Assembly (NCBI GenBank): GCA_963759805.1
Contig: CAVXAT010000005.1
Location: 67,585-131,584 of the forward strand
DNA from: an uncultured bacterium
Lineage (GTDB): Bacteria; Babelota; Babeliae; Babelales; RVW-14
Direction: 5' to 3'
DNA length: 64,000 bases
Translations under genes and position numbers: made by a program
The notes under the pieces: generated by a model
The model's database searches: none
What the model was told of the DNA's origin: nothing
The model's input: only the letters and a program-made list of their open reading frames with translations
Shown here: piece by piece, positions 5,232 to 36,538 of the stretch
How the letters are laid out: the number at the start of each line of letters is the position of its first letter
How positions within the stretch are numbered: the first letter of the stretch is position 1

Positions 5232-6890
5232 ATGAAGCTTTATTTTAAATACTTTATTTTAGTAACTATATTAATTTCATATCAGTCGATTTATTCAGAA
5301 AATAAGGGTCTCGAAAATTGTGGGAATAGCTGCTACTTCAATGCATCATTACAAGCATTATCGCATCTTGATAAATTCAATTCGCTACTTCAGGAAAATT
5401 TATACGCACCTGATGATCTTATTCCACGTTTTTACATAAATCTTATGGAAGAAATAAAGAAGGGGCCTGGAACAATTTCCTGCAATTATAAATATACAAA
5501 TTTGGATAATAAAACTGAACGAAATTTTTATAACTTGGCGGGAGATTTGTTTTTTGGACAACAAGGGCAGCAAGAAGATGCCCCTGAGTTTATACAGAAT
5601 CTTTTTAAAAATATCATAGAAAATTCGTCATACTATAGGACAATTAAAGAATTAATAGAAAAAGAAATCGAACCTATATTCGATACAGCCTTCAATAAAA
5701 TTAGCCCTAATGATAAAAAATTTGCGCAACCTGTTGTAAAGGCAAAGGCATCCTTGTCCGCAAAAGAAAATGAGACTTTACAAAAAATACATTCACGTTT
5801 TTTTGAAAGTTTTGCTAAAGGATTAAAAATAACAAGAGAAGATTTATTAACAAATATCCTAGATCAATGTATAGAACTTTTAGATAGGAATCCCGATATT
5901 TTCCAAGCAAATTTATTTAACAACCTTAAAACATCTGAAACACAAGCAAAAAAGATAATAACTGAAACAGAAGTAAAAAGGATAGCAAAAAGAATAGTAA
6001 AAGCAAAAAGGATAGTCACTGAAACAAAAGCAGAAACCATTGCAAAGAATTATATAAAAACTATAGATGAAACATTTAAAAATGCATTAACTAACTACAA
6101 AAACATACAAATTGATGAAGATCAACCTATAGAAGTTGAAACCTACACAGGTAAAGGGAATCCAACAAGAAAATTTACACCTACTGATGATGGTTTGAAC
6201 AAGGCGACAACCCTCATAAAAAATCTTTCTTTAGCAAAGATGGAGACTAATCTCGAACCAATCTTTAATGGTATTAATGGAACATTTTGGAAATTTCCAG
6301 AAGGGAATTTATCAGAAGTACAAAAAAATTTAACTGCCATAATAAATTTAAAAAAATATTACCCTTATTGGTTACAGTTAAGCATCCCCAATAAAAAAAC
6401 AAATTTAAAAGAGCTAGAAGACCTCGAATCCATTGAATTAGAAAAAGCATTTCCTTATGTTATTGTTTGGCTAAAAAGATACAAAAATGAGGAGGGGAAG
6501 TTACAAAAAAATAGTACCACCATACCTTTTGAAAACCAAATCAATCTAAAACATGTAACCAAATCATTAAAATATAATCTAATTGCTTTTGTAGTTCAAA
6601 GCGGCAGTACCGGCGAAGGCCACTACTGGGCTTACGGAAAGGATAAAGATGATAAATGGTGGCGATATAATGACCCAAACGTAACCGACGCTTCGATAGA
6701 AGACGATGACAAAAAAAGCATTAAGGATATCTTCGAAACTGGCCTAGATCGCAATAAAGCAACCCCTTACGTTCTCTTCTATGAACTTGAAGAACCACTT
6801 AGTCTACTCAAGTCATCATTGCAGAAACTTAAAACAAAAGTGGAAATGTTGCAAGAGAAGTTGGGAACGCTGAGGGGTAAATTGGGATAG
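5232..6890 (+). CDS. secreted eukaryote-like ubiquitin-specific protease (USP, peptidase C19)
   Basis: Cys box KGLENCGNSCYFNASLQAL, QQEDAPEF box, His box QSGSTGEGHYWAY...WWRYND, terminal PYVLFYE; signal peptide; C-terminal leucine zipper. Confidence 0.9.
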   Translation: MKLYFKYFILVTILISYQSIYSENKGLENCGNSCYFNASLQALSHLDKFNSLLQENLYAPDDLIPRFYINLMEEIKKGPGTISCNYKYTNLDNKTERNFYNLAGDLFFGQQGQQEDAPEFIQNLFKNIIENSSYYRTIKELIEKEIEPIFDTAFNKISPNDKKFAQPVVKAKASLSAKENETLQKIHSRFFESFAKGLKITREDLLTNILDQCIELLDRNPDIFQANLFNNLKTSETQAKKIITETEVKRIAKRIVKAKRIVTETKAETIAKNYIKTIDETFKNALTNYKNIQIDEDQPIEVETYTGKGNPTRKFTPTDDGLNKATTLIKNLSLAKMETNLEPIFNGINGTFWKFPEGNLSEVQKNLTAIINLKKYYPYWLQLSIPNKKTNLKELEDLESIELEKAFPYVIVWLKRYKNEEGKLQKNSTTIPFENQINLKHVTKSLKYNLIAFVVQSGSTGEGHYWAYGKDKDDKWWRYNDPNVTDASIEDDDKKSIKDIFETGLDRNKATPYVLFYELEEPLSLLKSSLQKLKTKVEMLQEKLGTLRGKLG

Positions 6891-7510: not shown

Positions 7511-8692
7511 ATGAGTAAGAAAAGTACAATTTTCACCCTAGGCCTTGCCACATTCACAATGTTTTTTGGGGCAGGCAACGTCGTATTCCCACTCAGTCTT
7601 GGCAGAGATATGGGGAATATGGTTTTTTATGCAATCCTAGGCTTTTTTGCAACGGCAATTTTTGTTCCGCTACTTGGCCTAATTTCAGTAATGCTTTTTG
7701 AAGGCGATTATAAAAAATTCTTATCTACGATGGGGACAATTCCTGCAAGCTTGATCGCTCTTGTCTGCATGATTTTACTAGGCCCATTCGGATGCATAGC
7801 TCGCTGCATCGTTCTTTCATACTCTGCAATTCAGTGGCATCTTCCAAATATATCACTGTTTACCTACAGCTTGATCGCATCTATTTTTGTGTTTTTGGTA
7901 ACACAGAATAAAGGCAGAATCGTCAATCTGCTTGGCAAATATCTTGGACCTGTAAAATTAACATTACTGCTTTCGGTTATAGCAGTCGGACTTATTTCTC
8001 CATTTATGATGGAGCCAACAACATTCACTGCCGGACAGAGTTTTATGCGCGGTTTTAATGATGGTTACTTCACAATGGATCTGATCGGAGCACTATTTTT
8101 CTCAATGTTAATTTACACCGCATTGAAAAAAATGTTGTCTGAAGAAGGGAAGACGTCAACAAAAGATTTAATCGTTTATGGTATAAAATCAAGTCTTATC
8201 GGTGGTGGGTTGCTCGGAATCGTCTACCTTGGCTTTTGTACAATTTCCGCAATGTACGGCCCACACATCCATGGAATTGGAAGAGATCAAATCTTAAGTG
8301 CTTTGACAACCAAAATCCTTGGCCATGGTGCCGGAATTCTTGCCAACGCCACCGTTGCAATCACATGCTTAACAACAGCAATTGCATTAACAACGGTCTT
8401 TGCCGATTACCTGGCACATGAACTTACAAAGTCTAAAATTCGTTACCCTTATGCACTTTTAATAACAACAGTTATCACATTTGCAATGTCCAATCTCGGT
8501 TTTGAGGGAATTATGAATTTTGTTGAACCGATAATTGTTGTGCTTTATCCTGCTCTTATAGTTTTATGCTTAGCAAATATTGCCAATAAACTCTTTGGTT
8601 TTAAATACATTAAGCTTGTTGTCTTTTCATCTTTGATTGCAAGTTTGGTTCTCAATTATGGACAAGCAATTGCAGGCCTGATGATCAAATGA
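7511..8692 (+). CDS. brnQ: branched-chain amino acid transport system II carrier
   Basis: GLATFTMFFGAGNVVFP, GPFGCIAR, GYFTMD, CLTTAIAL motifs; about 12 TM helices. Confidence 0.93.
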   Translation: MSKKSTIFTLGLATFTMFFGAGNVVFPLSLGRDMGNMVFYAILGFFATAIFVPLLGLISVMLFEGDYKKFLSTMGTIPASLIALVCMILLGPFGCIARCIVLSYSAIQWHLPNISLFTYSLIASIFVFLVTQNKGRIVNLLGKYLGPVKLTLLLSVIAVGLISPFMMEPTTFTAGQSFMRGFNDGYFTMDLIGALFFSMLIYTALKKMLSEEGKTSTKDLIVYGIKSSLIGGGLLGIVYLGFCTISAMYGPHIHGIGRDQILSALTTKILGHGAGILANATVAITCLTTAIALTTVFADYLAHELTKSKIRYPYALLITTVITFAMSNLGFEGIMNFVEPIIVVLYPALIVLCLANIANKLFGFKYIKLVVFSSLIASLVLNYGQAIAGLMIK

Positions 8693-8721
8693 ACTTTAAA
8701 TAGCTTAATTCTTAAATTTTG

Positions 8722-8755
8722 ACAGGCAGGGCGCTAAAAATGCTCTGCCTGTTTT
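8722..8755 (+). terminator. Rho-independent terminator after brnQ
   Basis: acaggcagggcg-ctaaaaa-tgctctgcctgt hairpin followed by T run. Confidence 0.7.
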
Positions 8756-8882
8756 ATTATAAGTTACGGCAAAAACCATCAATTTATATAAACCATGTAC
8801 TATTTTAAGTTGATTTTAATAAATTTAATAAAATTAACAGAATTTAATTAAAGAAAAATTTAATTTAAAGAGAGGGTACTCT

Positions 8883-11102
8883 ATGAAGTTTGTTAAGGCT
8901 ATTTTATTAATATTTTTAATTACAACATCTTTATCTCCGATGAAAAAGCCTGGTAAAAGCGTCATGCCAACGAAAAAGCCTGGTAAAATTGTCGTACCTG
9001 TGAAAAAGCCTAAAAGTGTCGCGCCAATAAAAAAACCTAAAAGTGTCGCGCCTGTAAAAAAACCTAAAAGTGTTGTGCCTGTAAAAAAACCTAAAAGTGA
9101 ATTGCAAGTTAAATTGGAACAACTAAAATCACCCTTGGCCGAATTAAGAACCAAGTTAATGAAATTGCAGGAAAAGCTTGAGTCTTTGAGAATATTTCTA
9201 GACCCGGTAACCGAAGAAAATATCTGGGATAAAATAAAAAACTTGATACAAAACCAAAATGGTAATGAATTTAATCTTAAGCCAGAAATAATCGATGAAT
9301 GGATGTTGCTTGACAATCAACTCGGTACATTAAAAACTGATATGACTAAAATCAAAAATGATATTGTAATCGACAATGAATATTTTAAAGGAATTAGATT
9401 AGCAGATTATGCACCTGTTTTATATGCATTTGGAGATGATGTAAATAAAAGCAACGAAAGAGCCGTAATGCTCTTTAAACGTTTATGTGAAAAGGTAACA
9501 CCTATCATATTGGATACAACTCCAAAATCTTGCAATTCTATAGGCAAACGAATAGAACAACTAGAAACTCATCATGCCGGTATGATTGGATTCTTCGCAA
9601 GGAAAAATGCAGACAAAAGAATACAAGACCTTTATAACAAAAAACACGACCAGCTTAATATCGTGTCTAAATTAATTGATGAAATAAAAATAGGAATGTT
9701 CAATAGATTGCAAGAGGTATTTTTTTATTTATATAAAGGATACACATACAAAAATCAAATGGGTGCCCCAACGCCTATATCTATTATCGACGCTAATATT
9801 GCAAACAAAAAAGCACTCATTGAAAACTTTGCACTACAATTTAACAGAGGGTTTGATGTTATTGATAAAGTATTTATTAATAGTTTTAGCGTTTGGCGTT
9901 ACACGTTTGCAGGACAGCATAACATAGATGATATTGATTCAGGGGGAATACGAAGAGTTGCTATTTCCGACCTTGCTGCTTACTATAATTCGAAAGCAGA
10001 AGAAAATGGATTTGATAATAATGCAACTCGTGAAGCATTTCCAAAACTCATCTGGTTTCTGCTTGCAAATATGTTCAAACCAAGCCGCGACTCTCTTTTA
10101 ATCCAGGCTTGGAACAACAATCATGATGTACAATTTGATGGGTTTTCTGCAATCATAAATCTCCCACTGCCATTTTGGGGCACATTGCTATCTCAAGGCT
10201 CACTTGAGATTTCTGAAGATGATACGAAAAACGTGTTTACAGAACTTGGTATGCAAGGTGCAATAGTAGGCAACCTAAAAGATGCCTTAGGTTGCGATAC
10301 AGACAAAGAAACCATTGATGAATTAAATAAAAAGATCAAACTTAAGGATAAATACATTCAAGCACTCAAATTAAACAAGATCCTTTCGTTTGAGGATAAA
10401 GTAAAAAACATGCTCAGCCGATATTTAGCCTCAAAATATCACATAGATGAGATCAAAAAAGACTTCTGGCAGGATGCCAACCTCGTAAATTTAAGACGGG
10501 ATGCAGGTGTGGATGAAGACACCTTATTATCAACCGGCGCATTTCTTGATAATAACGAAATTCAACGCCATCTGAATAATGGCAACGTACAGTTTTTACT
10601 CATGAGGAAGTTTCTTAAAGAATTAAATTCTCAACACTTGTTCAATATGTTTAATAAACCACCAATGGCTCAAGAAATTAAAGATATGATTGTTGAAGGA
10701 GTTAGACAGAATAGATATGCTATCAGTTCAGAAGTGACTGATGCAATCACCCTATCAGAAACATTCATAAGGGATTTATTCGCAAGAAAACGATTAGAGC
10801 TACAGGCTAACAGCACAGATCCCTCCCTCCAAGCACAAGTTTTGATACTCAAAGCAATTGTATGGACTTTTAACTTTATCAACGAAAATGCTGGTGATGA
10901 AAAAGAACAAATAGATATTCGTACTGGATTTGTAAAATTTGTTACTGGTCAATCACGCCCAGCATATATGGTAGTCACTACACAAACAATTGGAAACTTA
11001 GAAGCTCATACCTGCTTTAAAACGATAAACATTCCTGAGCAGTTGCTACAAGCAGATGATTATAATTCATTCAAAATCGCTCTTATAGGTGTTGTAAAGT
11101 AA
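8883..11102 (+). CDS. secreted HECT-type E3 ubiquitin ligase-like effector
   Basis: C-lobe FVKFVTGQSR...AHTCFKTINIP (Cys codon 11013-11015); N-lobe-like FAGQ..IDSGGIRR; signal peptide, basic repeats, leucine zipper. Confidence 0.8.
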   Translation: MKFVKAILLIFLITTSLSPMKKPGKSVMPTKKPGKIVVPVKKPKSVAPIKKPKSVAPVKKPKSVVPVKKPKSELQVKLEQLKSPLAELRTKLMKLQEKLESLRIFLDPVTEENIWDKIKNLIQNQNGNEFNLKPEIIDEWMLLDNQLGTLKTDMTKIKNDIVIDNEYFKGIRLADYAPVLYAFGDDVNKSNERAVMLFKRLCEKVTPIILDTTPKSCNSIGKRIEQLETHHAGMIGFFARKNADKRIQDLYNKKHDQLNIVSKLIDEIKIGMFNRLQEVFFYLYKGYTYKNQMGAPTPISIIDANIANKKALIENFALQFNRGFDVIDKVFINSFSVWRYTFAGQHNIDDIDSGGIRRVAISDLAAYYNSKAEENGFDNNATREAFPKLIWFLLANMFKPSRDSLLIQAWNNNHDVQFDGFSAIINLPLPFWGTLLSQGSLEISEDDTKNVFTELGMQGAIVGNLKDALGCDTDKETIDELNKKIKLKDKYIQALKLNKILSFEDKVKNMLSRYLASKYHIDEIKKDFWQDANLVNLRRDAGVDEDTLLSTGAFLDNNEIQRHLNNGNVQFLLMRKFLKELNSQHLFNMFNKPPMAQEIKDMIVEGVRQNRYAISSEVTDAITLSETFIRDLFARKRLELQANSTDPSLQAQVLILKAIVWTFNFINENAGDEKEQIDIRTGFVKFVTGQSRPAYMVVTTQTIGNLEAHTCFKTINIPEQLLQADDYNSFKIALIGVVK
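8943..9098 (+). repeat. tandem 27-30 nt repeats encoding KKP(G)KSV(A/V/M)P(V/I/T), five full units plus a partial one
   Basis: aaaaa(g/a)cct(ggt)aaaagtgtcgcgcc units seen directly. Confidence 0.9.
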
Positions 11103-11275
11103 AAAAAGGCATGCAGAATTAAGATTTACCAACAGCCAATCTAGATCTGGCTAATTTTTATCTTTTTATCTCCAAACATTGACGAATTTTGCAATATCAG
11201 GCATCTTCTGAATGTTTTAATAGGCAATTTTCCAAGGGTTATTTTAAATATTTTATTTTAATATGGGCTGATTCT

Positions 11276-13681
11276 ATGAAACTCTCGCTTGCATGGATAT
11301 TCGATCACATTAATGCGGACTGGAAAAAACAGGATATAGATCAAATTTTTTCAAAATTTAATACCACAACAGCCGAAATTGAAGATTTTCATAAACTGAA
11401 AATCGACTTGCAAAACTTCTTTCTTGGGAAAATTGTTGCAAGCACCAATAATAAAATAATTTTTTTGGTGCCGGAGTTAAAAAAAGAGATTGAGTTGGCG
11501 CAACCCCAAGCGCAAACCGATGGGACTTTTACACATACCCCAAATCCTGTTGTCCCAAATCCTATCTTAATGATCAAAAAAGTTAATGGCGTTTTTTACT
11601 GGGCAAATTTAGTTGATTTTGGAATGGAAAAGGACGGCCTCTTACCTGCATTTGATATAAAAGAGGAAGATCTGTCCGGAAACTGGCGCAATCAATTTGA
11701 AAACGAAGACATCATTCTTGAAATCGACAACAAATCAATCACACACAGACCGGATATGTGGGGGCACAGGGGCTTTGCTCGAGAAATTGCCATGATTATG
11801 GATCTACCATTTAAAGAACAATCTGAATTTTTAAAAGATATTCCAGTGCAGTGCTTTGATGGTCAAAGTAGAGCAACACAAACTAATCCAATCACAATCG
11901 AAAATCAGGCACCTGAAGGCTGCAAAAGATTCACAGGGCTTTATTTTAAATCAATTGAAAACAGACCATCCAACATTTTTATTGCAAGCAGGCTGCTCAA
12001 AATTGGGCAACGACCAATTAATGGAATAATAGATCTAACAAACTACATTGCCCAAGAGTGGGCACAGCCCGTTCATGCTTATGACACAGAAAAAATTACA
12101 GACAAAAAAATCATTATTAGATTAGCTAAAAAAGGCGAAAAGATTGAGCTCCTGGACGGAAATAGCATCGAACTAACCAATCACGACATGGTCATCGCAG
12201 ACAGTAAACATGCAATGTGCTTGGCAGGAGTCAGAGGTGGGATAAGCAGTGCTATAAGCGGCGCAACAAACTCTATCCTTTTTGAATCGGCAACCTTTGA
12301 TGCCGGGACGGTTCGACGCAGCGCCTTAAGACACAAAACCCGCACCGACTCTTCTGCAAGATTTGAGAAAACACTTGATCCAAACCAAACAACTCAAGCA
12401 ACCCAAAGATTTTTGAAATTACTGGATGAGTATGGAATAAAAGCTGAATATGCTCCGGAAATTATCTCAATTGGGCATCCGGTTGCAGAAAATGTAATTG
12501 AGCTAAGTCACGACTTTTTAGAAAAACGCTCAGGAATTAGCTTGCAAGAAAGCGATGTCATCAGGCCTCTTACAAAACTAGGTTTCACAGTTTCAGTGAA
12601 AAAAACGCCGGCTTCAATACTTTATGATATTAAAATTCCTACTTTTCGAGGTAGCAAAGATATCAAAATAAAAGAGGACATACTTGAAGAAGTGGCGCGC
12701 TGTTATGGTCTTAATAACATTCCTCTGAATTTGCCTGTTTTTATTAGAAAGCCTTACGATCTGAAATCCCAAGCAAGACTACGCTTAATTAAAGATTACC
12801 TGTCCAGCGAGGCCAAAATGTCCGAACAACAAAATTATGTGTTCTTTGATGAGGATTTTTTGACCGAAGTAAATTTGGCTGGAGCAAATCTGAATGAGCA
12901 GAACATAGTCAGCGTGGTTAATCCGGTTTCGCAAAACAACTTTAGGTTGGTTTGTTCACTTGTCCCGGGACTGCTTAAAAATATAAAAAATAATCATATA
13001 CATCACGATAAACTTGCTTTTTTTGAATTCGCACGCGTCTGGAATGTGGAAAAGAATAAAGTTGTTGAGCATAAGTCTCTTGCCGGCATATTTTTTGAAA
13101 AATACACAGAGATAGATTTTTACAGATGCAAACAACACATAATTGATCTGTTTTTAGCTCTTGGATTTGATGTAAAAAAACTTGAATGGCAAAAAATTGA
13201 TAAGCCTGCCACTGATTGGTACAGGGAGTATCAGACTGCAGAAATTATATTTGATGGCAAAAAAGTTGGCATTGCAGGTAACGCAGATCCGGTCTTTTTA
13301 AGTAAACTTAAAATTCACGAACAAAACTCGGCATTCATTTTTGAAATTGATGGAAAGTGGCTTTTAGAAGGCAAAACCAAGGCAAAACGTTACTCTGCAT
13401 TTTCAAAATTTCAGGAAACATACTTTGACTTGAGCATTCTTGTACCATTAACCGTAACCACAAAATTTGTCGAAGATAAGTTAGAAAAAGTAAACACACT
13501 TATTAAAAAAGTTGAATTAATCGACTTTTTTGAAAAAGCTGAATGGACTGACTCTCGATCACAAACATTTAGAATTTGGCTTGAACATCCGGATAAAACA
13601 CTAGAAAAAGAGGATATCGACAACACAATGCAATTGGCAATCAAGGCGATAGAATCATTTGGTGCAAAACTCAGATCCTAG
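11276..13681 (+). CDS. pheT: phenylalanine--tRNA ligase beta subunit
   Basis: MKLSLAWI start, THRPDMWGHRGFARE, B3/B4 RTDSSARFEK, B5 EDILEEVARCYG, C-terminal FDX-ACB domain; B2 region divergent. Confidence 0.95.
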   Translation: MKLSLAWIFDHINADWKKQDIDQIFSKFNTTTAEIEDFHKLKIDLQNFFLGKIVASTNNKIIFLVPELKKEIELAQPQAQTDGTFTHTPNPVVPNPILMIKKVNGVFYWANLVDFGMEKDGLLPAFDIKEEDLSGNWRNQFENEDIILEIDNKSITHRPDMWGHRGFAREIAMIMDLPFKEQSEFLKDIPVQCFDGQSRATQTNPITIENQAPEGCKRFTGLYFKSIENRPSNIFIASRLLKIGQRPINGIIDLTNYIAQEWAQPVHAYDTEKITDKKIIIRLAKKGEKIELLDGNSIELTNHDMVIADSKHAMCLAGVRGGISSAISGATNSILFESATFDAGTVRRSALRHKTRTDSSARFEKTLDPNQTTQATQRFLKLLDEYGIKAEYAPEIISIGHPVAENVIELSHDFLEKRSGISLQESDVIRPLTKLGFTVSVKKTPASILYDIKIPTFRGSKDIKIKEDILEEVARCYGLNNIPLNLPVFIRKPYDLKSQARLRLIKDYLSSEAKMSEQQNYVFFDEDFLTEVNLAGANLNEQNIVSVVNPVSQNNFRLVCSLVPGLLKNIKNNHIHHDKLAFFEFARVWNVEKNKVVEHKSLAGIFFEKYTEIDFYRCKQHIIDLFLALGFDVKKLEWQKIDKPATDWYREYQTAEIIFDGKKVGIAGNADPVFLSKLKIHEQNSAFIFEIDGKWLLEGKTKAKRYSAFSKFQETYFDLSILVPLTVTTKFVEDKLEKVNTLIKKVELIDFFEKAEWTDSRSQTFRIWLEHPDKTLEKEDIDNTMQLAIKAIESFGAKLRS

Positions 13682-14766: not shown

Positions 14767-15519
14767 ATGAGTCGGCAACTCTTGAGTTCGGCTCTTGAAC
14801 AAGCAGCTAAAGTTTATTCACATAACCAAACGCAAGAATCAGACCAGCTTGGCATTGAGATACTAAACACAAATAATATAGAACAATATGCATATCTCAT
14901 CAAAATGCTTGATTCACTTTGCATGGAAAGGCTCAGGCTTGAAAATTATGCTATAAAGCTAAATTTACAAAACGATAGCCAAGAATGGAACGAGTTGACT
15001 AAGCTGCTGCAAATATTGTCAGTCAGCTATGTTGCTGCGCCCAATCTCACTAAAAATCTTGAAAACCCCAATGAAATGAGCTTTGAATTTGTTTCGCGCG
15101 ATCTTGGTGCAGACATAACATTTATTTGCGGTAAATGCTACGCCATCAACAATAATATTCAAAATATTCAAGCAAAAATTGACATAAACAAGTTGATTAT
15201 ACTTGTTGAAAAACAGCAAAGCAGGCTGTTAATTCCTGAAAATCTCCCCCTGCATGTTGTCATTCCAATCGGCAAAGAACAGAGGGCTTTGGCCTTACTG
15301 TTGGCAGATAAATTACAATCAAACTCATTGAGCACAGATGTGATTTTGGAAGATATATCATTGCCAGATATGATGGCAAAAGCAAATAAGCTCGGTGCAA
15401 AATATGTTTTGATTGTTGGACAAGACGAACAAAGGGACGGCACCGTCACAATCAAAAACATGCAAAAAGGTGATAGCACCACTGTTAAGCAGTCCGAAAT
15501 AATTTCGTATTTAAAATAA
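14767..15519 (+). CDS. shortened histidyl-tRNA synthetase paralogue retaining the anticodon-binding domain
   Basis: C-terminal ANKLGAKYVLIVGQDE..GTVTIKNM HGTP anticodon domain; degenerate core QLGIEIL, FEFVSRDLGA. Confidence 0.75.
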   Translation: MSRQLLSSALEQAAKVYSHNQTQESDQLGIEILNTNNIEQYAYLIKMLDSLCMERLRLENYAIKLNLQNDSQEWNELTKLLQILSVSYVAAPNLTKNLENPNEMSFEFVSRDLGADITFICGKCYAINNNIQNIQAKIDINKLIILVEKQQSRLLIPENLPLHVVIPIGKEQRALALLLADKLQSNSLSTDVILEDISLPDMMAKANKLGAKYVLIVGQDEQRDGTVTIKNMQKGDSTTVKQSEIISYLK

Positions 15520-17247: not shown

Positions 17248-19779
17248 TTAAACTGCACCTGTTAATTGTTTATTCAATAGTTCCAATTTTGAACTTAGCA
17301 TTAAAAGTTTTTGTTTGAGCATGCCCAGCGAAGTTTTAAGGCGTCTGAGGTTCATTTGTAATCGAAATTGTTGTTCAAGTCTCAGCTCTAATTGGGTTCG
17401 ATCTTTAAGCTTTTGATGTAATTCAAATTGATTTTTTTGTTGTTCAAACTGTATCCATTCGTCCGCTGTTATGACAGGAGTTTGTATCATTGTCTGTTTA
17501 ATTACAACAGGATTAAGTTTTTCAATAAAATCCTTAAACGACAATGTTGCTGATGGATTTTGGAGCTTGATGTTTGTTTTTTCACTTTGAAAAATATATC
17601 TTACTACAGGTAGCTGTGCATAGTAATCTGCGAGATTTAGTTCCGCCAAATATGTGAGATTAGCAGATTTCAGGTTGTTTTTATGTAATAATTCGGATTC
17701 TTTAAAGCGCCAAAGAGATTGCGATTTATCGGCAGGCAGAGTGGCCCATTCAAGGTTTAGATCTTTTGTTATATAGGACAAATTCCATGCTTTACCACTA
17801 AAATTGAAGGATATAGTTATATGCGTAAGAAAATTCTCTGATTTCGTTTTTGATTTTACTCTTGAGGTTCTAATAAAGGTATTTTGCAAAATTATTTGCT
17901 TCGTCTCTAGCTTTTTCTTGCCCAAAAATTTTTTAAATTCATCTTGATCATCCAAAATTTGGGAAAAATCATTGAAACCCTCAAGTTCTTTGATGAAAAA
18001 TGTTTTTTCAGATTTTCTATTTCGTAAGATTAAGAAACTATCCCGCAAAAAATTAAGTATTCCAGTTTCAGTAGTTGGTTCGCCTGCATTTGGAATATTT
18101 ATTTTGGCAAAAAGGTTAAGACTGTCACCTCTTTGCATTGAAATAAATTGTGGATAGACATAAAAATTTTTTTCTACTGGATTGGCGCTATAAACTGTGT
18201 TAAAGCATGAAATTGAGGGAAAGTATTTATAAAGATTAACAAGCCATCTAGATAAATTGTTTTGATACAAAATTTTGGTGTTTAGTTGGGTGTTCGGAAT
18301 TATATTGATATTGGCAAAAACAATTTCTGAATATAACAGTAAGGCTAGCCTCTGCTTAATGTCAAGTGTTCCAGCTTCTGCAAAGTACATTTTTTTTAGG
18401 CGATCTATTATTACTTTCTTAGTTTGGGGTGTTTTTCCCATTGTATCCTCTATTTCCACCTCCTCCCCCTCAATAAGTTCAGGTTTTGCTAAAGTCTTTA
18501 TAATTCTAGCGTCAGTTATTTTCTCAAAATTAAATGTCTGAAACCAGCCAACTTCCGGAATCAAAATTTGAGAGATACCGTTGGGTCCTTCAGGGAAAAT
18601 ATACCATGAAGGAGGTAATGATAATTTTTCTAAAACTCCCTCAAGCCCGCTATTTTTCTCTAACCTTTTAATTTCTGATTTTATTACTTTGGGAGGTTCT
18701 GTGGTTTTAGATTTGATTGTCTTTATTTTATCGCTAAATGACTCAGTGCTATCTTGAAATTTCTCTATAGCCTCAAAATATCCATTAAAATCAAGCCCAC
18801 TGTACCCCTTGGGGTTAACGGGAAAGGTTCCATATGATGGTGCATCTGTGATAGAATCAACTATGAAAAGATACTTTATTCTTATTGGTATATAGTTTTT
18901 AACTTGTATTAGATCTAAAATTTTTCCGCCAGAATAGCACGAGAGGAGTCGTACGGATTTAGTGTTAAGCTTATCATTGAAAAAAATTAGCATGTTGGCC
19001 ATATCCTCAATCGACATGCCAGCTACAGTAAACTTTTCCGGTTCAATATAAATTTCCCCCACCTTTTTTCCTGGTGAGTAACTGCCATGTCCATTTATGA
19101 ATATGTTACATGGCTGCAATAAACTTAATTTTTCATAATCTTCAAGTGGTTTAAAAATTAAAGATAATTGAGTAGGATCAAATTTTTTATGAATGGTTGT
19201 TTCGGGTGCTTTCAAATCTTTTATATCAGTATTTGTGTCTTTAGCGTAAGTGATATACTTCATATTTTCATTAGACAGCAATCTTTTGGCCTCAATTGGG
19301 ATGTCTTTTGCCCAAGGTATTATTGGAAAGTCTTTATTCCCTTTGCCATTGTATTCGTCGCCAGCAGAAAGATTAATTTTGGTCCATAAAGTTTTATTAA
19401 AAATCGGATTGTCGTAATCTCTCGAAGCAAAAATAAAAAAATGAGTATTTTTAACCTGATAAATATCCCAGTCATTTAAGTCTATAGTTAGGCTATCAAG
19501 AAACGGATCTGGATTTTCTGTATATTTTCTCAGAATCATATTTTTTAAGACATAATTTGAAACGATAGTAACATGCGAAGTTTTTTTCGAGAGTGTACGT
19601 GCAAATTCTCCCGTTATGGCACCACGTTTTCCAGAGCCAAACCTTTCGCTATGATCATCAATAAAAAAAGCAATTCTAACTGGTTTAATATTTTCCTCAG
19701 CTGTGGGCACCTGAGTTTTTACAGCAGCAAAAATATTTGAACTTAAGATAAACACCAACAATACTACTATCTTACGCAT
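17248..19779 (-). CDS. large secreted protein with clan CD (caspase/CHAT/C80-like) His-Cys dyad, copy 1
   Basis: Signal peptide MRKIVVLLVFILSSNIFA; CNIFINGHGS...VRLLSCYSGG; C-terminal leucine zipper; paralogous to 57853-60359 and 61450-63927. Confidence 0.75.
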   Translation of the reverse strand: MRKIVVLLVFILSSNIFAAVKTQVPTAEENIKPVRIAFFIDDHSERFGSGKRGAITGEFARTLSKKTSHVTIVSNYVLKNMILRKYTENPDPFLDSLTIDLNDWDIYQVKNTHFFIFASRDYDNPIFNKTLWTKINLSAGDEYNGKGNKDFPIIPWAKDIPIEAKRLLSNENMKYITYAKDTNTDIKDLKAPETTIHKKFDPTQLSLIFKPLEDYEKLSLLQPCNIFINGHGSYSPGKKVGEIYIEPEKFTVAGMSIEDMANMLIFFNDKLNTKSVRLLSCYSGGKILDLIQVKNYIPIRIKYLFIVDSITDAPSYGTFPVNPKGYSGLDFNGYFEAIEKFQDSTESFSDKIKTIKSKTTEPPKVIKSEIKRLEKNSGLEGVLEKLSLPPSWYIFPEGPNGISQILIPEVGWFQTFNFEKITDARIIKTLAKPELIEGEEVEIEDTMGKTPQTKKVIIDRLKKMYFAEAGTLDIKQRLALLLYSEIVFANINIIPNTQLNTKILYQNNLSRWLVNLYKYFPSISCFNTVYSANPVEKNFYVYPQFISMQRGDSLNLFAKINIPNAGEPTTETGILNFLRDSFLILRNRKSEKTFFIKELEGFNDFSQILDDQDEFKKFLGKKKLETKQIILQNTFIRTSRVKSKTKSENFLTHITISFNFSGKAWNLSYITKDLNLEWATLPADKSQSLWRFKESELLHKNNLKSANLTYLAELNLADYYAQLPVVRYIFQSEKTNIKLQNPSATLSFKDFIEKLNPVVIKQTMIQTPVITADEWIQFEQQKNQFELHQKLKDRTQLELRLEQQFRLQMNLRRLKTSLGMLKQKLLMLSSKLELLNKQLTGAV

Positions 19780-20056
19780 TCCATTCTCCTTTTTAACAAA
19801 ATAACCCAAAATAAGTCTTGGGGATTTTAGCATTATGCAGCTGAAGAAATAAAGCTTAAGTTAGAAATTATTTTTTTTAGCGCATGTACAGGTAAAAATA
19901 GTTTACTTGAAATGTTTTTGCAGACTTTTTTTAAGTTTTACCTAAGCTTATTGAGCAGTTACCAACCCTGATTTAAATAACCTTGCTTTATTATTGCGCT
20001 TTGGTATTCTCCAAAAAGATAGCTTTATAAACCAAAATTACGCATATGGGTGAAAG

Positions 20057-24916: not shown

Positions 24917-25597
24917 ATGATAAAAAAATTAAAAATTTTATTATTTGGCTTAGCTTTAGTTTTGGCTCAACCTGCAACATTTGCACAAAGTGCTGAAAAA
25001 ACACAAACCGTAGATATTAAAGAAGAAACAGAAAAATGGCAGTTTATCGAAAAACATTTCGCCTCAGATTTGAATGCATTAAAATTTCAGCAAAAAATGG
25101 GTTCTTTTTGGGGGAAGCACTCTTCTTATGTGGCAGCTCCCACAGCCTGCGCACTTGCATCCTTTATGGCTCTACATTTAGATAAAAAGGATAGCATCTT
25201 CGCAAAACTAGATGACAAAATTCTTGATACAATAGGGTATGCTTTTAATATAATCATAAATAGAGACGATCGACGCTATGCAGCTCTTACGATTATTACT
25301 ATTGTAGAATTCATAATTATTTTTTTAGTTATAAAGACAACACTAAAAGCTATCGGCAAAAGACTTGAAAATAAAGATGAACATTGTCTGCAACTATTAA
25401 CAAATTTTTTAAACAACTGGGAAAAAAATAAAGCACAAACTCCAGCATCGTTAATACCCATGTTCGAAACATTGGCAACATACAATCACATATCACGAAA
25501 ACTCTTGCAAAAAACGGTTGATAAAGCTCTCGCAAAAAAGGTAGTAGACACCCTAATTGCAACTTCGTTAATATTCGTTAATAACAAATATTGCTAG
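24917..25597 (+). CDS. secreted/membrane paralogue array, member 1
   Basis: Signal peptide; EETEKWQFIEKxF and LQLLTNFLNNWEKNKAQTPASLIPMFE blocks. Confidence 0.85.
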   Translation: MIKKLKILLFGLALVLAQPATFAQSAEKTQTVDIKEETEKWQFIEKHFASDLNALKFQQKMGSFWGKHSSYVAAPTACALASFMALHLDKKDSIFAKLDDKILDTIGYAFNIIINRDDRRYAALTIITIVEFIIIFLVIKTTLKAIGKRLENKDEHCLQLLTNFLNNWEKNKAQTPASLIPMFETLATYNHISRKLLQKTVDKALAKKVVDTLIATSLIFVNNKYC

Positions 25598-25626
25598 TAA
25601 TTCAAAAAAATGAGAATTTCATCTTT

Positions 25627-26280
25627 ATGATAAAATTAAGAGTTTTTTTATTTAGTTTGGTCTTGGCTTTGACACAATTTACAATATTCGCACAAGACGA
25701 AATAACAAATTCAGAAATAACCAATACCAAATATGAAACGGAAAAATGGCAATATATCGAAAAATATTTCGCCTCAGATTTGAATACATCAAAATTACAG
25801 CAAAAAGTGGGTGCTTTTTTGGATAAGCACTCTTCTTATGTGGCAGCTCCCGCTGCATGCGCAATTGCGTTCTTTATGGCTCTCTATTCAAATAACATAG
25901 ATGATAACATTTTCGCACAACTAGATTTCAAAATTCTTGAGACAATAGAGTACGCCTTTAAGATAACCCCGGAGAAAGACGAAAGACTCTACGCAGCATT
26001 AGCGAGTATTATTATTGTGAGACTCATAATTATTTTTTTAATTACAAACAAAATACTAAAAGATATAGGCAAAAGACTTGAAAATGAATATAGGCCTTGT
26101 CTACAACTATTAACAAATTTTTTAAACAACTGGAAAGAAAATAAAGAGCAAACGCCAGCATCGTTAATCCCTATGTTCGAAAAATTAGCAACTGGTGATA
26201 ACATATCAAAAGTAGATGAAGCTCTTGCGAAAAAAATAGTAGATGCAATAATCACAACTTCGTTAATGAGACCTTTATGA
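25627..26280 (+). CDS. secreted/membrane paralogue array, member 2
   Basis: Same conserved blocks. Confidence 0.85.
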   Translation: MIKLRVFLFSLVLALTQFTIFAQDEITNSEITNTKYETEKWQYIEKYFASDLNTSKLQQKVGAFLDKHSSYVAAPAACAIAFFMALYSNNIDDNIFAQLDFKILETIEYAFKITPEKDERLYAALASIIIVRLIIIFLITNKILKDIGKRLENEYRPCLQLLTNFLNNWKENKEQTPASLIPMFEKLATGDNISKVDEALAKKIVDAIITTSLMRPL

Positions 26281-27071
26281 TGATAAAAAAATTAAAGATT
26301 TTGTTATTTGGTTTAGTTTTGGTTTTGACACAATTTGCAATATTTGCACAAAGTGAAGCCCCCAGTACAACGGACTTGGGTAATGAAGTAGAAATAACAC
26401 CTGAAATTGTAACGCAGGCGATTAACGCTGCCACACAAGAAACACAAATAACAGCTGTTAAAGAAGAAACAGAAAAATGGCAGTTTATCGAAAAATACTT
26501 TGCTTCAGATTTGAATACGTCAAAATTACAACAAAAAGTGGGATTTTCTTTAAATAATTACTCATCTTATATAGCATTTCCTACCACATTCACATTGTCA
26601 TGTTTTATGGCTCTCTATGCAAGAGGTAGTGGTTATGATAATATTTTCGAAAAACTAGATAACAAGTTTCTTGATGCAATAAAGTACATTACAAAGCTAA
26701 TTACAGATGCGCCAACAACATCCGACTGGGAGGCTGAAAGGAACGCTAGGTGTTATACCGTTGGGGGGATGGGTAAAGTTTTGAGACCCATAATTATTTT
26801 TTTAGTTATAAACAAAATACTAAAAGCTATCAGCAAAAAACTTGAAAATGAAGATGAACGCTCTCTGCAACTATTAACAGATTTTTTAAACAACTGGGAA
26901 AAAAATAAAGCACAAACACCAACATCATTAATCCCTATGTTCGACGCATTGACAACAGAAAACAATATATCACGAAAGCCCTTCCAAAAAACGGTTGATA
27001 AAGCTCTTGCAAAAAAGATTGTAGCCGCAATAAGTGCAACCTCATTAATAATGAGGAGTTCATTATCATGA
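26277..27071 (+). CDS. secreted/membrane paralogue array, member 3
   Basis: Same conserved blocks; ATGA overlap with previous gene. Confidence 0.85.
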   Translation: MMIKKLKILLFGLVLVLTQFAIFAQSEAPSTTDLGNEVEITPEIVTQAINAATQETQITAVKEETEKWQFIEKYFASDLNTSKLQQKVGFSLNNYSSYIAFPTTFTLSCFMALYARGSGYDNIFEKLDNKFLDAIKYITKLITDAPTTSDWEAERNARCYTVGGMGKVLRPIIIFLVINKILKAISKKLENEDERSLQLLTDFLNNWEKNKAQTPTSLIPMFDALTTENNISRKPFQKTVDKALAKKIVAAISATSLIMRSSLS

Positions 27072-27727
27072 AAAATTTAAAATTTTTTTTATTTGGTTTG
27101 GTTTTTGTTTTGACACAATTTACAATATTTGCACAAGATGAAATAACAAATACAGAAACAACAAATGTTAAAGAAGAAACAGAAAAATGGCAGTTTATAG
27201 AAAAATATTTTACTTCAGATTTGAATCCATCAAAATTACAAAAAGTGGGGCTTTCTTTAAATAATTACTCATCTTACATAGCAGTTCCTACCACATGCAG
27301 ATTGTTATGGTTTCCTGATAACATTTTCACAAAACTAAATATCCCAATTATTAATGCAATAAACGAAATTTTCTATAAAAACCTAAATATAAACATCGCA
27401 AACTATACTGAGTTTAGTCTTACTATTTTGGAATCTATAATTGTTTTTTTAATTACAAACAAGGTACTACAAGCTATCGGCAAAAGACTTGAAAATGAAG
27501 ATGAACGTTGTCTGCAACTATTAACGGATTTTGTGAATGGCTGGAAAGAAAATAAAGAGCAAACACCGGCATCGTTAATACCTATGTTCGAAACATTGAC
27601 AACAGACGATAACATATCACGAAAACCCTTGCAAAAAACGATTGATAAAGCTCTTGCAAAAAAAGTAGTCGCTGCTATAATTGCAACTTCGTTAATGATA
27701 GATAGTGCTAGTAATTCAAGAAAATAA
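27068..27727 (+). CDS. secreted/membrane paralogue array, member 4
   Basis: Same conserved blocks; ATGA overlap. Confidence 0.85.
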   Translation: MKNLKFFLFGLVFVLTQFTIFAQDEITNTETTNVKEETEKWQFIEKYFTSDLNPSKLQKVGLSLNNYSSYIAVPTTCRLLWFPDNIFTKLNIPIINAINEIFYKNLNINIANYTEFSLTILESIIVFLITNKVLQAIGKRLENEDERCLQLLTDFVNGWKENKEQTPASLIPMFETLTTDDNISRKPLQKTIDKALAKKVVAAIIATSLMIDSASNSRK

Positions 27728-27740
27728 GGAGTTTATTATT

Positions 27741-28403
27741 ATGAAAAATTTAAGATTTTTTTTATTTGGTTTGGTTTTGACGCAATTTACAATATTTGCA
27801 CAAGAAGCAACGCCCAAAGCTGTGGAAGATGCCCAAACAGAAAGCATTGCATCTGAAGCAACACAAATCATTGAAGAAATCGCAACAAGCTCTGATGAAA
27901 CAGAAAAATGGCAATTTATCGAAAAATATTTCGCCGCAGATTTGAACATATTAAAAATTCATCAAAAATTAGGTCGTTTTTTAGATAACTACTCTTCTTA
28001 CATGGCAGCCTGTGTCACGCCTTGGTCGGCATTGGTAGCAGTTGGAATTTTTGATAAAATTGAGAAGAAAATTAACATTAACATTAAAAATAATCGTGCT
28101 TGGGATTTATTTGAGCTGACAAATTGTTGTTGTATAGCACCTATAATTGGTTTTTTAATTACAAACAAAATACTAAAAGCTATCGGCGAAAAGCTTGAAA
28201 ATGAAGATGAACGTTGTCTGCAACTATTAACAGATTTCTTAAACAACTGGGAAAAAAATAAAGCACAAACTCCCGCATCATTAATACCTATGTTCGAAAA
28301 ACTAGCAACTGATAATAACATATCAAAGGGTGATAAAGCTTTTGCACAAAAAATTGTGGAAACAATAATTGCAACTTCTTTAATGATAAATTCGGTCAAA
28401 TGA
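27741..28403 (+). CDS. secreted/membrane paralogue array, member 5
   Basis: Same conserved blocks; AAGGAG RBS. Confidence 0.85.
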   Translation: MKNLRFFLFGLVLTQFTIFAQEATPKAVEDAQTESIASEATQIIEEIATSSDETEKWQFIEKYFAADLNILKIHQKLGRFLDNYSSYMAACVTPWSALVAVGIFDKIEKKININIKNNRAWDLFELTNCCCIAPIIGFLITNKILKAIGEKLENEDERCLQLLTDFLNNWEKNKAQTPASLIPMFEKLATDNNISKGDKAFAQKIVETIIATSLMINSVK

Positions 28404-28444: not shown

Positions 28445-30379
28445 TTAACGACGTTTAAAATTTTTCTCGACTTCAAACTTACTTATAACCCATGTCGTTG
28501 GACGGCCGTGTACACAGATGATACGATTTTCGCATTTATTCAGGTCATCAATCAATTGCTGTACCTGAGTGAGTGTTAACTCATCACCGGCCTTGATTGC
28601 AGATTTGCAAGCAATCTGTGAATGCATGTGTTCATTAAGTTTTTTGCGAAAGATTTCCCGATCAAGCCTCTCATTCTCTTGGATGAATTCTATGGCTTGC
28701 ATGAAAAACTCTTTTAAAGATGTTTTTGAAATTTTTGGGGGACTGGTTTTAATGTTGATATCATTTTTACCAATCACTTCGAAATCAATCCCTTGATCAT
28801 TAAAAAAGTCTTTACACTCAAGCAACGATTTGATTTGGGATTCAGTGAGAGTTAAAAATTCAGGGAATAGAAGTCGCGTACCCTGTTTTTGCTCAAAATT
28901 TTTTAACAAATTTTCATAGATAATTCGCTCATGTGCCGCATGCTGATCAATGATCACAAAATTATCTTTGTTTTCAATTAAAATATATGTTTTAAAAAGC
29001 TGCCCGATAATTTTGTATGATTGCGTTTCAGGCTGGATAGTCGACGCCTGCACAGCTTTTGACTGAACACTCTGTCCATAAACCGGCAAATTAGTTTGTC
29101 CTTGTATTGGTTCTAACGGGGTACTTATTTGATCCATGGATCCTGAAATAAATTCAGGATGACAAAATGAGGTAGACACAAAAAAATCTGGCTTTGGCCT
29201 TAGGCTAGGAAACAGTTCAAAGGTTTGAGAACTCGAAAGCTCAGATATGTTATCATGCACAGCATCTTGATTTATAAAATTTGAATTCGCAAAACTCTGG
29301 TCCGTACAACTTGGCATAATCTGCTTTGACAAACTTTGAGTCAGCGTATTTTTTACAACCTCCTGCAGCATATTTTGAACAGTAACTGGCTTTATAAACC
29401 TGACCTCTTCCTTTTTTGGATGACAGTTAATATCAACAAGCGTTTTATCGATATTAATAAAAATGAATGCTGCCGGGAATTTGTCAGGCGGCAAAACATT
29501 TAAATAACCCTTGAGCAAGCCCTTGCTAAGCTCAGAATTTTTTACCCATCGATTATTCACGAAAAAAAAGATGTGAGTGCGACCGTAGCGCCAAAAATTG
29601 TGGTTTGATATATACCCACTGAATTGAATCCAACGCACTGGCTTTGACATATCAGATCGAGACGCGCCTGTGTTTGACTGGGCGCTAAGCGACAAATCAT
29701 TTAGTTCAATTAAATTTTGTGAAAAGTTATGATCCCAAACTTGCGTTGTCCTGTCCTGAATACTATTAACAGGGGGTGCATTAAGCACAAGCTTACCATC
29801 ATTGAAAAGTTTAAAATGGATTTTAGTGTGGCTCAGGCAAAAAGCATAAAAAAGCATCTGAATCTGATTCCACTCTGTCTCGTCATGCTTTAAAAATTTC
29901 TTACGCACTGGAATATTATAAAACAGGTCACGAATTACAAGATCAGTTCCAAAATTACACGCAATAGATTTTTCTGAGATTAGTTTTGAGTCTTCGTACT
30001 CTATCTGAGTACCAAGTTCAATATTCTCCTGATTTAAACGCGTAATTAATTTTATTTTGCTAATTGCGCTGATACTTGCAAGAGCCTCTCCTCGAAATCC
30101 ATATGAGTCGATAGACTCCAACTCGTCTATGTTAGATATTTTGCTGGTAGCATGCGATAAAAAACAATTCTTGGCATCAGGCACAGACATTCCGCAACCA
30201 TTGTCCACAATTCGAATTAATTGCTTGCCGGCCTTTTCGATATACAAAGAAATTTGAGAGGCCCCCGCATCAATAGAGTTTTCAACAATCTCTTTAACAA
30301 CATTTACAGGACGCTCTATAACCTCTCCGGCTGCAATCTTTTGCGCCTGATCGGGAGACAAGACTTTGATTTTGTTCAT
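28445..30379 (-). CDS. mutL: DNA mismatch repair endonuclease MutL
   Basis: IAAGEVIERP, GFRGEALASI, DINCHPKKEEV, DQHAAHER, ACKSAIKAG, CVHGRP. Confidence 0.97.
   Translation of the reverse strand: MNKIKVLSPDQAQKIAAGEVIERPVNVVKEIVENSIDAGASQISLYIEKAGKQLIRIVDNGCGMSVPDAKNCFLSHATSKISNIDELESIDSYGFRGEALASISAISKIKLITRLNQENIELGTQIEYEDSKLISEKSIACNFGTDLVIRDLFYNIPVRKKFLKHDETEWNQIQMLFYAFCLSHTKIHFKLFNDGKLVLNAPPVNSIQDRTTQVWDHNFSQNLIELNDLSLSAQSNTGASRSDMSKPVRWIQFSGYISNHNFWRYGRTHIFFFVNNRWVKNSELSKGLLKGYLNVLPPDKFPAAFIFINIDKTLVDINCHPKKEEVRFIKPVTVQNMLQEVVKNTLTQSLSKQIMPSCTDQSFANSNFINQDAVHDNISELSSSQTFELFPSLRPKPDFFVSTSFCHPEFISGSMDQISTPLEPIQGQTNLPVYGQSVQSKAVQASTIQPETQSYKIIGQLFKTYILIENKDNFVIIDQHAAHERIIYENLLKNFEQKQGTRLLFPEFLTLTESQIKSLLECKDFFNDQGIDFEVIGKNDINIKTSPPKISKTSLKEFFMQAIEFIQENERLDREIFRKKLNEHMHSQIACKSAIKAGDELTLTQVQQLIDDLNKCENRIICVHGRPTTWVISKFEVEKNFKRR
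29132..29164. repeat. palindromic element inserted in frame in the mutL linker (reads CHPEFISGSMD)
   Basis: atccatggatcctgaaataaattcaggatgaca, near-identical to intergenic copies at 21240 and 54357. Confidence 0.8.
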
Positions 30380-31926: not shown

Positions 31927-32574
31927 ATGCTAAGCAATATTTTACGTCTGATCTACCCATCACTTTGCCAATCGTGCACCTCAATTATTGATCAAGGGCA
32001 AACCTTTTGCTTTTCATGCCAAAGTAAAATAAAACCGGTTGTACCAATCTTTCTTGCATTAACAAAAAAGTATACGCTGAACGTCCATGCTGCTTGTGCA
32101 TATGACTATCCCGTTAAAGCATTGATCTTTAAAAAATTTTCACATGACACTCTTGCATGTAAACAACTTGCAAATTTGATGATTGATTTTGTCCCATTCG
32201 ATTCCATAAAAGCAGATTTTTTAATTCCTGTCCCCCTCCATTGGTCAAGATTCGCGTGGAGAGGATACAACCAAGCTGACTTGATTGCAAAGCAAATAAG
32301 CAAAAAACTTGGTATTCCAATGTTGAATATAGTTAAAAGAAAACGAAGAACAAATTTTCAATCCAAACTAAACACAAGTCAACGACAAGAAAATGTCGAG
32401 AACGTATTTTCTGTGAATAAGAATGCCAAAATTGGCAATCCAATAAAAGACAAAAATATTGTGATCATCGATGATCTTTTTACAACCGGAGCAACGGTGA
32501 AGAGCGTTGCTAAATCGTTAATTCACTTGCAGCCGGCTTCAATCTGCATTGTCGTTGCCTGCAGGACCATTTAA
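31927..32574 (+). CDS. comF: ComF family amidophosphoribosyltransferase-like protein
   Basis: YPSLCQSC..FCFSC, IPVPLH..RGYNQA, IIDDLFTTGAT. Confidence 0.9.
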   Translation: MLSNILRLIYPSLCQSCTSIIDQGQTFCFSCQSKIKPVVPIFLALTKKYTLNVHAACAYDYPVKALIFKKFSHDTLACKQLANLMIDFVPFDSIKADFLIPVPLHWSRFAWRGYNQADLIAKQISKKLGIPMLNIVKRKRRTNFQSKLNTSQRQENVENVFSVNKNAKIGNPIKDKNIVIIDDLFTTGATVKSVAKSLIHLQPASICIVVACRTI

Positions 32575-35082: not shown

Positions 35083-36138
35083 ATGGAGTGTATAAAAAAA
35101 TTAATATTGACAGCAATGCTTGCCGGTCTACCTGTAACACCTGGTTACGGAATGCAAGAAACAACGGACATTTTTGATATGACGCTTTTGCATTATGCTG
35201 TGATAAATGAAAATATAAATGCCGTAAAAGAACTTCTTGAATCCGGTGCCGATGTTAATCAAGCAGATAAACGCGGTGATACACCTTTGCATTTGCTGCG
35301 CGAAATGGATTCTTGAAGATTGCAGAAATTCTTATTGCACACAACGCTGATGTTAATGCAATAACGCAAATTATATGTATGATTATACACCCTACTGCAA
35401 CCTACTGATAGAATCGCAAGAAACAGAAACACAACCCAAGGTTGAGTTACCCACTGCTTTGTATGTTGCTGAGTTAAATGAACATCCTGAGACTGTAGGA
35501 ATATCTATTAAAATCGATACTAATGTTAATCACGCATATGATAGCGGTTTTACGCCTTTGATTTTTGCTACAGTAATGGACACCTAAATGTTGTAGACTT
35601 GCTTATTCGCAAGAGAGCCAATGTTAATCAAGCAAGCACGAAAGGCTTAACTCCTTTGATTCGTGCTGCAATGAATGATAGACACGCGATGGTTGTAGGA
35701 AGACTTCTTAAAGCCCATGCTGGTATTGATCAAGCAGATATTTGGGGTATGACATCTTTGCATTATGCTGCGGCAAGAGGACACTCAGATATTGTAAGAG
35801 TACTTCTTCGTGCCCACGCTAATGTTAATAAAGCAGATAATTGGGGAATGACGCCTTTGCATTTTGCTGCACTAAATGGACACTCGAATATTGTCAAGAT
35901 GCTTCTTGGCGCCCATGCTAATCTTAATCTAAAAAACAATATTGGAAAAACCCCTCTGGATTGTGCACGTAAATCAAAGGATAAAGAAACCATAGGGCTA
36001 CTCATTAGTCATAGTTCCACATCAGATGCCTCCATATCAGATACATCCATATCAGACTCCATGTCAGATACCTCCATGTCAGGGGCCTCCACACCAGAAG
36101 AGACAGAAGACGTAGAATCCACCCCTCTGCTCCATTAG
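35083..36138 (+). pseudogene. ankyrin repeat protein, frameshifted copy
   Basis: Split over three ORFs; indels versus the intact copy near 35294, 35375 and 35576. Confidence 0.85.
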
Positions 36139-36181
36139 ACCAAGTTTTAAAAGTAATAATTCCAAATTAAAATATTTGGAT

Positions 36182-36219
36182 AAAAAGAAGGTCCCGTATA
36201 AAAACGAGACCTTCTTTTT
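36182..36219 (+). terminator. Rho-independent terminator
   Basis: aaaaagaaggtcccg-tataaaaa-cgagaccttcttttt. Confidence 0.75.
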
Positions 36220-36538
36220 ATGCGCTTGAATGCTTCTCATAATAAACTTTTCTTATCCATCTTTAAAGCAACACCAACTCGCCTTCACACTGTATAATCT
36301 CTTCAACCTTTTGGCATTCTGCGGGTTGTCGCCACCATTAAAACAGCAATTTTATGCGATTTTGCATGTTTCGATGTATTTTATTCAATAAAATATTAAT
36401 ATTTTATATAACATAAAAATTCAATTTATCTTACTATTTGCAATTATAAATATTGCGTGATATCATTAGTAGTAGTTGGGTGCCATGTATTTGGCTCCAG
36501 TAAAATCTAAAACCGTGTTTCTGATGAAAGGTTATGTT

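Follow-up and report, generated by a model that had tools for sequence, protein, structure and literature searches.

Genomic context of the HECT gene

The DNA analysed here (the window) is a stretch of 64,000 nucleotides from an uncultured member of the Babelota (GenBank assembly GCA_963759805.1, contig CAVXAT010000005.1, positions 67,585 to 131,584), from a contig that measures 131 kb and a genome of 1.5 Mb that is 88.7% complete. Proteins from two genomes of the same family carry the label Candidatus Babeliales, in line with this placement. The Babelota, or Dependentiae, have been described as intracellular parasites of protists (PMC6561590; PMC12172432). Our subject is an open reading frame of 739 residues (8883..11102) that codes for a divergent HECT-domain protein, as judged by its motifs, a structure model and Foldseek searches, and that is called the query below. 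The HECT gene with its parts, the USP gene, brnQ and pheT are all on the plus strand. The gene order is recO, mscS, a USP deubiquitinase gene, brnQ, the HECT gene and pheT. The USP-type gene (5232..6890; Pfam UCH, 102.5 bits) lies 2 kb upstream of the HECT gene, and its product has Cys and His boxes, a signal-peptide-like start and a C-terminal zipper. Of the 261 genomes surveyed in the phylum, 90 have USP domains, frequently more than one, although few bacterial USPs are known according to a recent review (PMC13720258). The window's genome has four USP matches, including G000:C10:7130-8389 and C2:54922-58512.

Pfam and a comparison with congeners showed that the HECT gene occupies a variable site between a brnQ-type transporter gene (7511..8692) and pheT (11189..13681). 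In two of the three congeners brnQ adjoins pheT and the HECT gene is absent, the matches that flank window positions 8698-11172 being 88 bases apart. In the third congener (G151) the orthologue is located close to mscS, with a complete USP domain fused ahead of it and a further USP gene after it, and a metagenome contig provides an independent copy of the order brnQ then HECT orthologue. The gene order and the congener comparison therefore indicate that the site is no contaminant but part of a bacterial chromosome, where genes directed at ubiquitin form a variable cluster. Misassembled or misbinned eukaryotic or viral DNA, or a chance look-alike of the motifs, might be suspected in a metagenome-derived genome whose HECT gene has no direct Pfam match. 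However, the gene sits between two bacterial genes on a long contig, the independent contig repeats the order, the gene has no introns and its GC content (33-36%) matches that of its flanks, and the relatives described below are surrounded by bacterial housekeeping genes in several genera. This explanation is thus largely refuted and is highly improbable.

Protein layout and motifs

The protein begins with a signal-peptide-like N-terminus (residues 1-21; 8883..8945), recognized by reading the sequence and by crude hydropathy, in which two Lys precede a hydrophobic run. A Lys/Pro-rich repeat of six P.KKP units follows (8943..9095), of which only the first unit is present in the relatives P0002 and L094, and then a leucine-zipper-like heptad segment (residues 72-104; 9096..9194) that resembles terminal segments of other exported-looking proteins. 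The remainder is a mostly helical body. It comprises a region that evolves fast by its substitution rates (residues 105-244; 9195..9614), which is a candidate substrate-binding part, a long lead helix with the HECT N-lobe, drawn from the model and the alignment (from residue 245 to an estimated lobe boundary near residue 590; 9615..10652), and the HECT C-lobe region (residues about 591-739; 10653..11099), placed by the profile comparison and by blocks of predicted local distance difference test (pLDDT) values of 75-96.

The initial annotation had proposed eukaryotic-type HECT motifs in both lobes. Its C-lobe resemblance was confirmed, with FVKFVTG at residue 683 (10929-10949) and the cysteine loop AHTCF at residue 708 (11004-11018). 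In the N-lobe, FAGQ (residue 342; 9906-9917) and IDSGGIRR (residue 351; 9933-9956) are present as proposed, but the resemblance to F.GE..D.GG..RE is incomplete: the gap between FAGQ and IDSGG is five residues (HNIDD), three longer than the canonical spacing, and Val stands at the Glu position of GG..RE. The candidate cysteine codon was correctly placed; TGC at 11013..11015 encodes Cys711, the predicted catalytic residue given its invariance across the family. Its position, in an HTC(F) loop and 28 residues before the end, agrees with the roughly 30 residues expected of HECT. None of these 28 residues is Phe, so the reported absence of the usual Phe four residues from the end holds. The lobes are also expanded by insertions, as had been noted: 359 residues separate the D.GG motif from the cysteine, versus 257 in the relative G156, and the C-lobe carries an insertion of about 45 residues and the FVTG motif, is modelled with three strands surrounding the cysteine, and ends in a helix that no C-terminal tail follows. 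A loose C-lobe pattern matched one of the 1699 open reading frames of the genome, namely the query gene, and gave two matches in 50 shuffled proteome copies, in none of which it co-occurred with the N-lobe pattern. This chance test is partly circular, because the pattern was composed with the family already in view.

Evidence for homology to eukaryotic HECT ligases

Relatives were sought in 261 genomes of the phylum (G codes), and P0002, P0004, P0016 and L094 were taken from other collections. The query matched the G156 protein (E 2.9e-13), whose core in turn matched Pfam HECT (PF00632) over the C-lobe with 35.5 bits (cut-off 23.9). When 13 family cores were scanned, P0016 and L094 as whole sequences, G146 also exceeded the cut-off (27.2 bits). 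A DEAD-box helicase of G199 (L018:5524-7281) reached 29.9 bits and was rejected as a false positive, which calls for caution in surveys of bacterial HECT. In view of this helicase, the scores of G156 and G146 count only because their matches include the catalytic motif. The Pfam search suggested by the initial annotation thus succeeded for two relatives and failed for the query itself. Additionally, a family profile matched a profile of nine giant-virus proteins over the C-lobe (hhalign probability 95.7); the viral proteins were picked by their cysteine motif, which favours a match, and seven of the nine are Pfam HECT proteins. As a lead only, 28 of 30 matches in the ESM Atlas were HECT proteins, with scores up to 0.91.

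An AlphaFold2 model of residues 245-739, built from an alignment of 14 bacterial sequences and no templates, gave a pLDDT of 77.1 and a predicted template modelling score (pTM) of 0.76. It shows a two-lobe HECT fold in which Cys711 lies between strands of a high-confidence alpha/beta C-lobe, and the expected E2-binding subdomain (residues about 435-510) is of low confidence (pLDDT about 45-65). All 42 Foldseek matches listed (first 49 ranks) were eukaryotic HECT E3 entries, the best among them being SMURF2 (E 2.8e-6), with an alignment that spans both lobes. Against viral structures, three of the top five matches were named HECT. The lack of a HECT fold on modelling, together with a lack of Cys-dependent ubiquitin transfer, had been named as grounds for dropping the assignment, and the predicted fold argues the other way.

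Several results weigh against the assignment. The query alone matched neither Pfam HECT, even with the threshold at E 10, nor any HECT sequence in the PDB, and therefore routine annotation would overlook the gene. Four of the 13 family cores scored 17.9-21.5 bits and the remainder, apart from G156 and G146, had no match. A profile from which G156 and G119 were left out missed the query, so that the link between the query and subgroup B of the family depends on these two. The Foldseek matches listed had modest TM-scores (0.20-0.40 by query length) and 9-14% identity; the insertions and the way the lobes are oriented probably account for the low TM-scores. Subgroup A, which includes the query and here also P0004, ends 26-29 residues past the cysteine, and the tail Phe is missing from six of its six members. 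Since the query neither reaches the Pfam cut-off nor has the tail Phe, it is classed as a divergent HECT variant and not as a standard member. Even so, HECT homology is supported by the transitive sequence link, the profile comparison, the language-model features and the predicted fold, and we are highly confident that the family consists of true homologues of eukaryotic HECT. Judged by its modelled fold and motifs, the family is descended from eukaryotic HECT ligases and would act in the same way.

A rare family in the Babeliales

Searching the phylum genomes with Pfam HECT at E <=0.01 yielded 11 places, spread over 10 genomes; six of these places were kept. Profile searches brought in G142 and G119 before converging at 10 genes in nine of the 261 genomes. 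The carriers are the window's genome, seven of 34 others of the same family and one of two of another family; the relative from G151 matched the query at E 8e-185. All 13 sequences that extend into the C-lobe have the cysteine, as do all 12 rows of the family alignment, in which the Asp and second Gly of the N-lobe motif are nearly invariant. Open reading frames are intact in nine of the 10 genome-located genes, and the G153 member (L020:4333-7194) has one in-frame stop immediately before the N-lobe motif. The N-terminal parts vary. In G151 a complete USP domain stands ahead of HECT, and the 1568-residue G156 protein (L005:4168-8874) runs from a signal-like start through glutamine repeats, a USP domain that has Cys and His boxes (31.2 bits) and a cysteine cluster judged RING-like by eye to HECT. 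The G119 member has HEAT-like repeats with a score below cut-off. Together these proteins are a rare family of eukaryote-type HECTs in the Babeliales, in which some members are fused to USP and one subgroup has lost the tail.

The family tree comprised 12 bacterial and 8 viral rows, without cellular eukaryotic HECTs, and had several long branches. Bacterial and viral rows were separate (support 97/96). Subgroup A contained the query, G151, P0002, G156 and G119 (93/90, not starred), and subgroup B had a support of 99/98. The patchy distribution suggests that the HECT was acquired from a eukaryote or a giant virus, as the initial annotation had supposed. The phylogeny that it called for set the bacterial rows apart from the viral ones and, as a tree of bacterial and viral rows, points to no donor. 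In subgroup B, a Phe follows the last helix in seven of seven alignment rows (six of seven by pattern), and it is exactly at position -4 in G155b. Because this sister subgroup keeps the Phe, its absence in subgroup A is most simply explained by loss in one lineage. In E6AP, where the cysteine is residue 820 and the tail Phe is residue 849, F849A and deletion of the four-residue tail preserve the thioester and di-ubiquitin formation, the latter near wild-type efficiency, and abolish chain elongation and K48 specificity (PMC6463701). By this analogy, a missing tail Phe need not by itself imply a dead enzyme. The two subgroups, with and without the Phe, offer a natural experiment on the role of the HECT tail in chain type.

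Putative export signals and selection

A hydrophobic N-terminal run was found by crude hydropathy in 11 of 11 family members tested; in a similar test, 453 of 1090 open reading frames of the window's genome were positive. In C. destructans, 44% of proteins are reported to carry signal peptides, putative effectors included (PMC6561590). The window also contains a type II secretion or pseudopilin cluster (50418-55623) with T2SSF, T2SSG and N-methyl pilins beside an MlaD protein, and type II secretion components have been reported as core in TM6 (PMC4776705). Heptad-like segments also occur at the C-terminus of the upstream USP, at the ends of window 17248-19833, 57853-58920 and 61450-63981, and elsewhere in the genome (G000 C5:46847-50461, C21:12465-17099 and C1:322589-323920). 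The exported-looking proteins that bear them include USPs, the HECT protein, a phospholipase A2-like protein and a PPDK_N-domain protein. The leucine/lysine heptad might serve as a common tag for export or pairing, although the reversed-sequence control was high (7 matches versus 11), and the search was not specific beyond coiled coil.

Ratios of nonsynonymous to synonymous substitution rates (dN/dS), obtained as pairwise counts, differed along the gene. Against L094 they were 0.74 for residues 109-264 and 0.34 for residues 336-404, and 0.04 for brnQ. Against G151, where the counts are near saturation, they were 0.51 for residues 109-264 and 0.20-0.35 for the HECT region, indicating purifying selection. 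A rapidly changing stretch ahead of a conserved catalytic domain would fit an effector with a host-facing binding region. The same values bear on the idea of an inactive relic or binding scaffold that retains the HECT fold and leaves the cysteine unused. Such decay would agree with the strong divergence, the empty site in two of three congeners and the in-frame stop of the G153 member, but it is at odds with purifying selection across the HECT domain, the cysteine invariant in 13 of 13 sequences and the open frames of nine of 10 genes. We regard a relic as very unlikely.

Proposed function

We propose, with somewhat better than even confidence, that the query is a divergent HECT-fold protein exported into the protist host, where it would move ubiquitin from host E2 via Cys711 to host or vacuole proteins. 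The N-terminal signal may direct Sec export, probably followed by type II secretion or outer-membrane vesicles. The N-lobe would then bind host E2~ubiquitin, a ubiquitin thioester is predicted on Cys711 from the fold and the invariance of this residue, and transfer would follow to a substrate selected by the fast-evolving region (residues 105-264). The protein would presumably rely on host E1, E2 and ubiquitin; dependence on host E2 is suggested because no E2 or ubiquitin gene was matched in the 88.7% complete genome. Absence of E2 is not proven by this search, because the E2 control also matched nowhere. Since the tail Phe is missing, the products are likely to be single ubiquitins or short mixed chains, and not long linkage-specific ones, by analogy with the E6AP tail mutants.

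The same tail could point instead to a HECT-derived trap or drain, in which Cys711 takes ubiquitin but transfers it poorly, so that E2~ubiquitin is discharged or sequestered and host ubiquitination is dampened, as by the neighbouring USPs. The tail is absent from every subgroup A member, E6AP F849A and the four-residue deletion form the thioester yet fail in chain elongation, and fusion with a deubiquitinase is easily explained if both parts strip the ubiquitin signal. However, those E6AP variants still make di-ubiquitin efficiently (PMC6463701), and the variable upstream region resembles a substrate-binding part. A trap is accordingly judged unlikely.

An active HECT transferase could also serve another, ubiquitin-like modifier, or a non-lysine acceptor, for instance a lipid or sugar at the surface of the vacuole or the bacterium. 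Alteration is greatest in the tail and in the region where E2 binding is expected, which set the choice of partner and linkage, and a Ulp1-like protease gene lies two genes downstream of the G156 member (Peptidase_C48, 19.2 bits, below cut-off). USP domains act mostly on ubiquitin, and they are the fusion partners here; nothing observed points directly to another modifier, and this option has only a slim chance of being right.

Returning to transfer of ubiquitin by the exported HECT protein, it likely acts alongside the USP deubiquitinases of the same locus. Because USP domains are common in the phylum, their fusion to HECT in two of 10 genes is suggestive of cooperation without proving it. 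A broader scenario is possible but doubtful: the Babeliales may have adopted a genuine eukaryotic HECT, the first such bacterial family, and built exported ubiquitin editors from a USP and a tail-less HECT, either in one chain (G151, and G156 with the RING-like cluster in between) or as neighbours that could pair via the zipper (the window), which would strip host chains and write short marks in their place.

Comparison with known systems

The query resembles eukaryotic HECT E3s (PF00632; SMURF1/2, WWP1/2, NEDD4, HUWE1, E6AP and UBR5) in its predicted two-lobe fold, in D.GG, F.TG and the HTCF loop between strands, in the C-terminal place of the domain and in the variable N-terminal part. It differs in its low identity to them (9-14%), its Pfam score below threshold, its large insertions and its missing tail Phe, and in being bacterial with a signal-peptide-like start and relatives that carry USP fusions. 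Deubiquitinase and ligase activities are combined in one chain in A20/TNFAIP3, through an OTU domain plus zinc fingers. The G151 and G156 fusions would resemble this protein, and are comparable with the Legionella editors of the LotA type, but use USP and HECT instead. Unlike A20, the window's own HECT protein is unfused. The joining of USP to HECT would be an architecture new among ubiquitin editors. Divergent HECTs of protist parasites are also found in giant viruses (Tupanvirus, Pithovirus, Fadolivirus and mimivirus R349), which supplied the top viral fold matches and the C-lobe profile match; unlike the query, these proteins have retained a tail beyond the last helix, and they stand apart from the bacterial rows in the tree (97/96).

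SopA, NleL, PvHECT, PsHECT and VsHECT share the proposed role of a secreted effector that forms a Cys thioester and uses a host E2 (PMC13720258). They are described as mimics unrelated to eukaryotic HECT, whose C-lobes are helical and whose N-termini consist of beta repeats (PMC13720258). In contrast, the model of the query has an alpha/beta C-lobe with three strands around the cysteine, none of this group was among the 42 Foldseek matches listed, and Pfam matched no pentapeptide or beta-strand repeats in the query, whose N-terminus is signal-like, Lys/Pro-rich and heptad-bearing. By its model and the Foldseek matches listed, the query is not a SopA/NleL-type mimic, and the view of the initial annotation that this is eukaryotic-type HECT and not such mimicry was supported by the sequence link, profile, language-model and fold evidence together.

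Our literature searches found no report of HECT in Dependentiae. Ehrlichia TRP120 has reportedly been termed a HECT ligase, which argues against full novelty. So does Legionella MavJ (Lpg2498), the nearest published precedent found, which was compared with the Babeliales family by description only; it is reported to have remote similarity to E6AP by HHpred and to cause ubiquitination in transfected cells (PMC5819833; PMC7542358 lists MavJ). MavJ is not counted as HECT in the ligase section of a 2026 review, according to which counterparts of HECT are still to be identified in bacteria, where unrelated thioester ligases evolved instead (PMC13720258). An active member of the present family, if true, would overturn this statement on bacterial HECT. 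The family also provides a testable handle on host manipulation by Dependentiae, a widespread and barely studied phylum of protist parasites.

Other features of the window

Several further features were observed. A 250-residue open reading frame (14767-15519) contains only the Pfam HGTP anticodon-binding domain and no synthetase catalytic domain. Five tandem paralogues of about 220-265 residues with signal-like starts occupy 24917-28403, the first without significant Pfam match. GC-rich in-frame stretches lie at 32539-34002, inside a phosphoglycerate-mutase-like gene, and within 28445-30379, possibly mutL. Ankyrin proteins are encoded at 35599-37690, and the minus strand codes for large, beta-propeller-like repeat proteins at 39996-48610. 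Paralogues of about 850 residues without Pfam match are found at 17248-19833, 57853-60380 and 61450-63981; one copy is split over two open reading frames, and a small Cys-rich reading frame lies beside each. They share a His-Gly then Ser-Cys motif, by eye suggestive of a cysteine protease.
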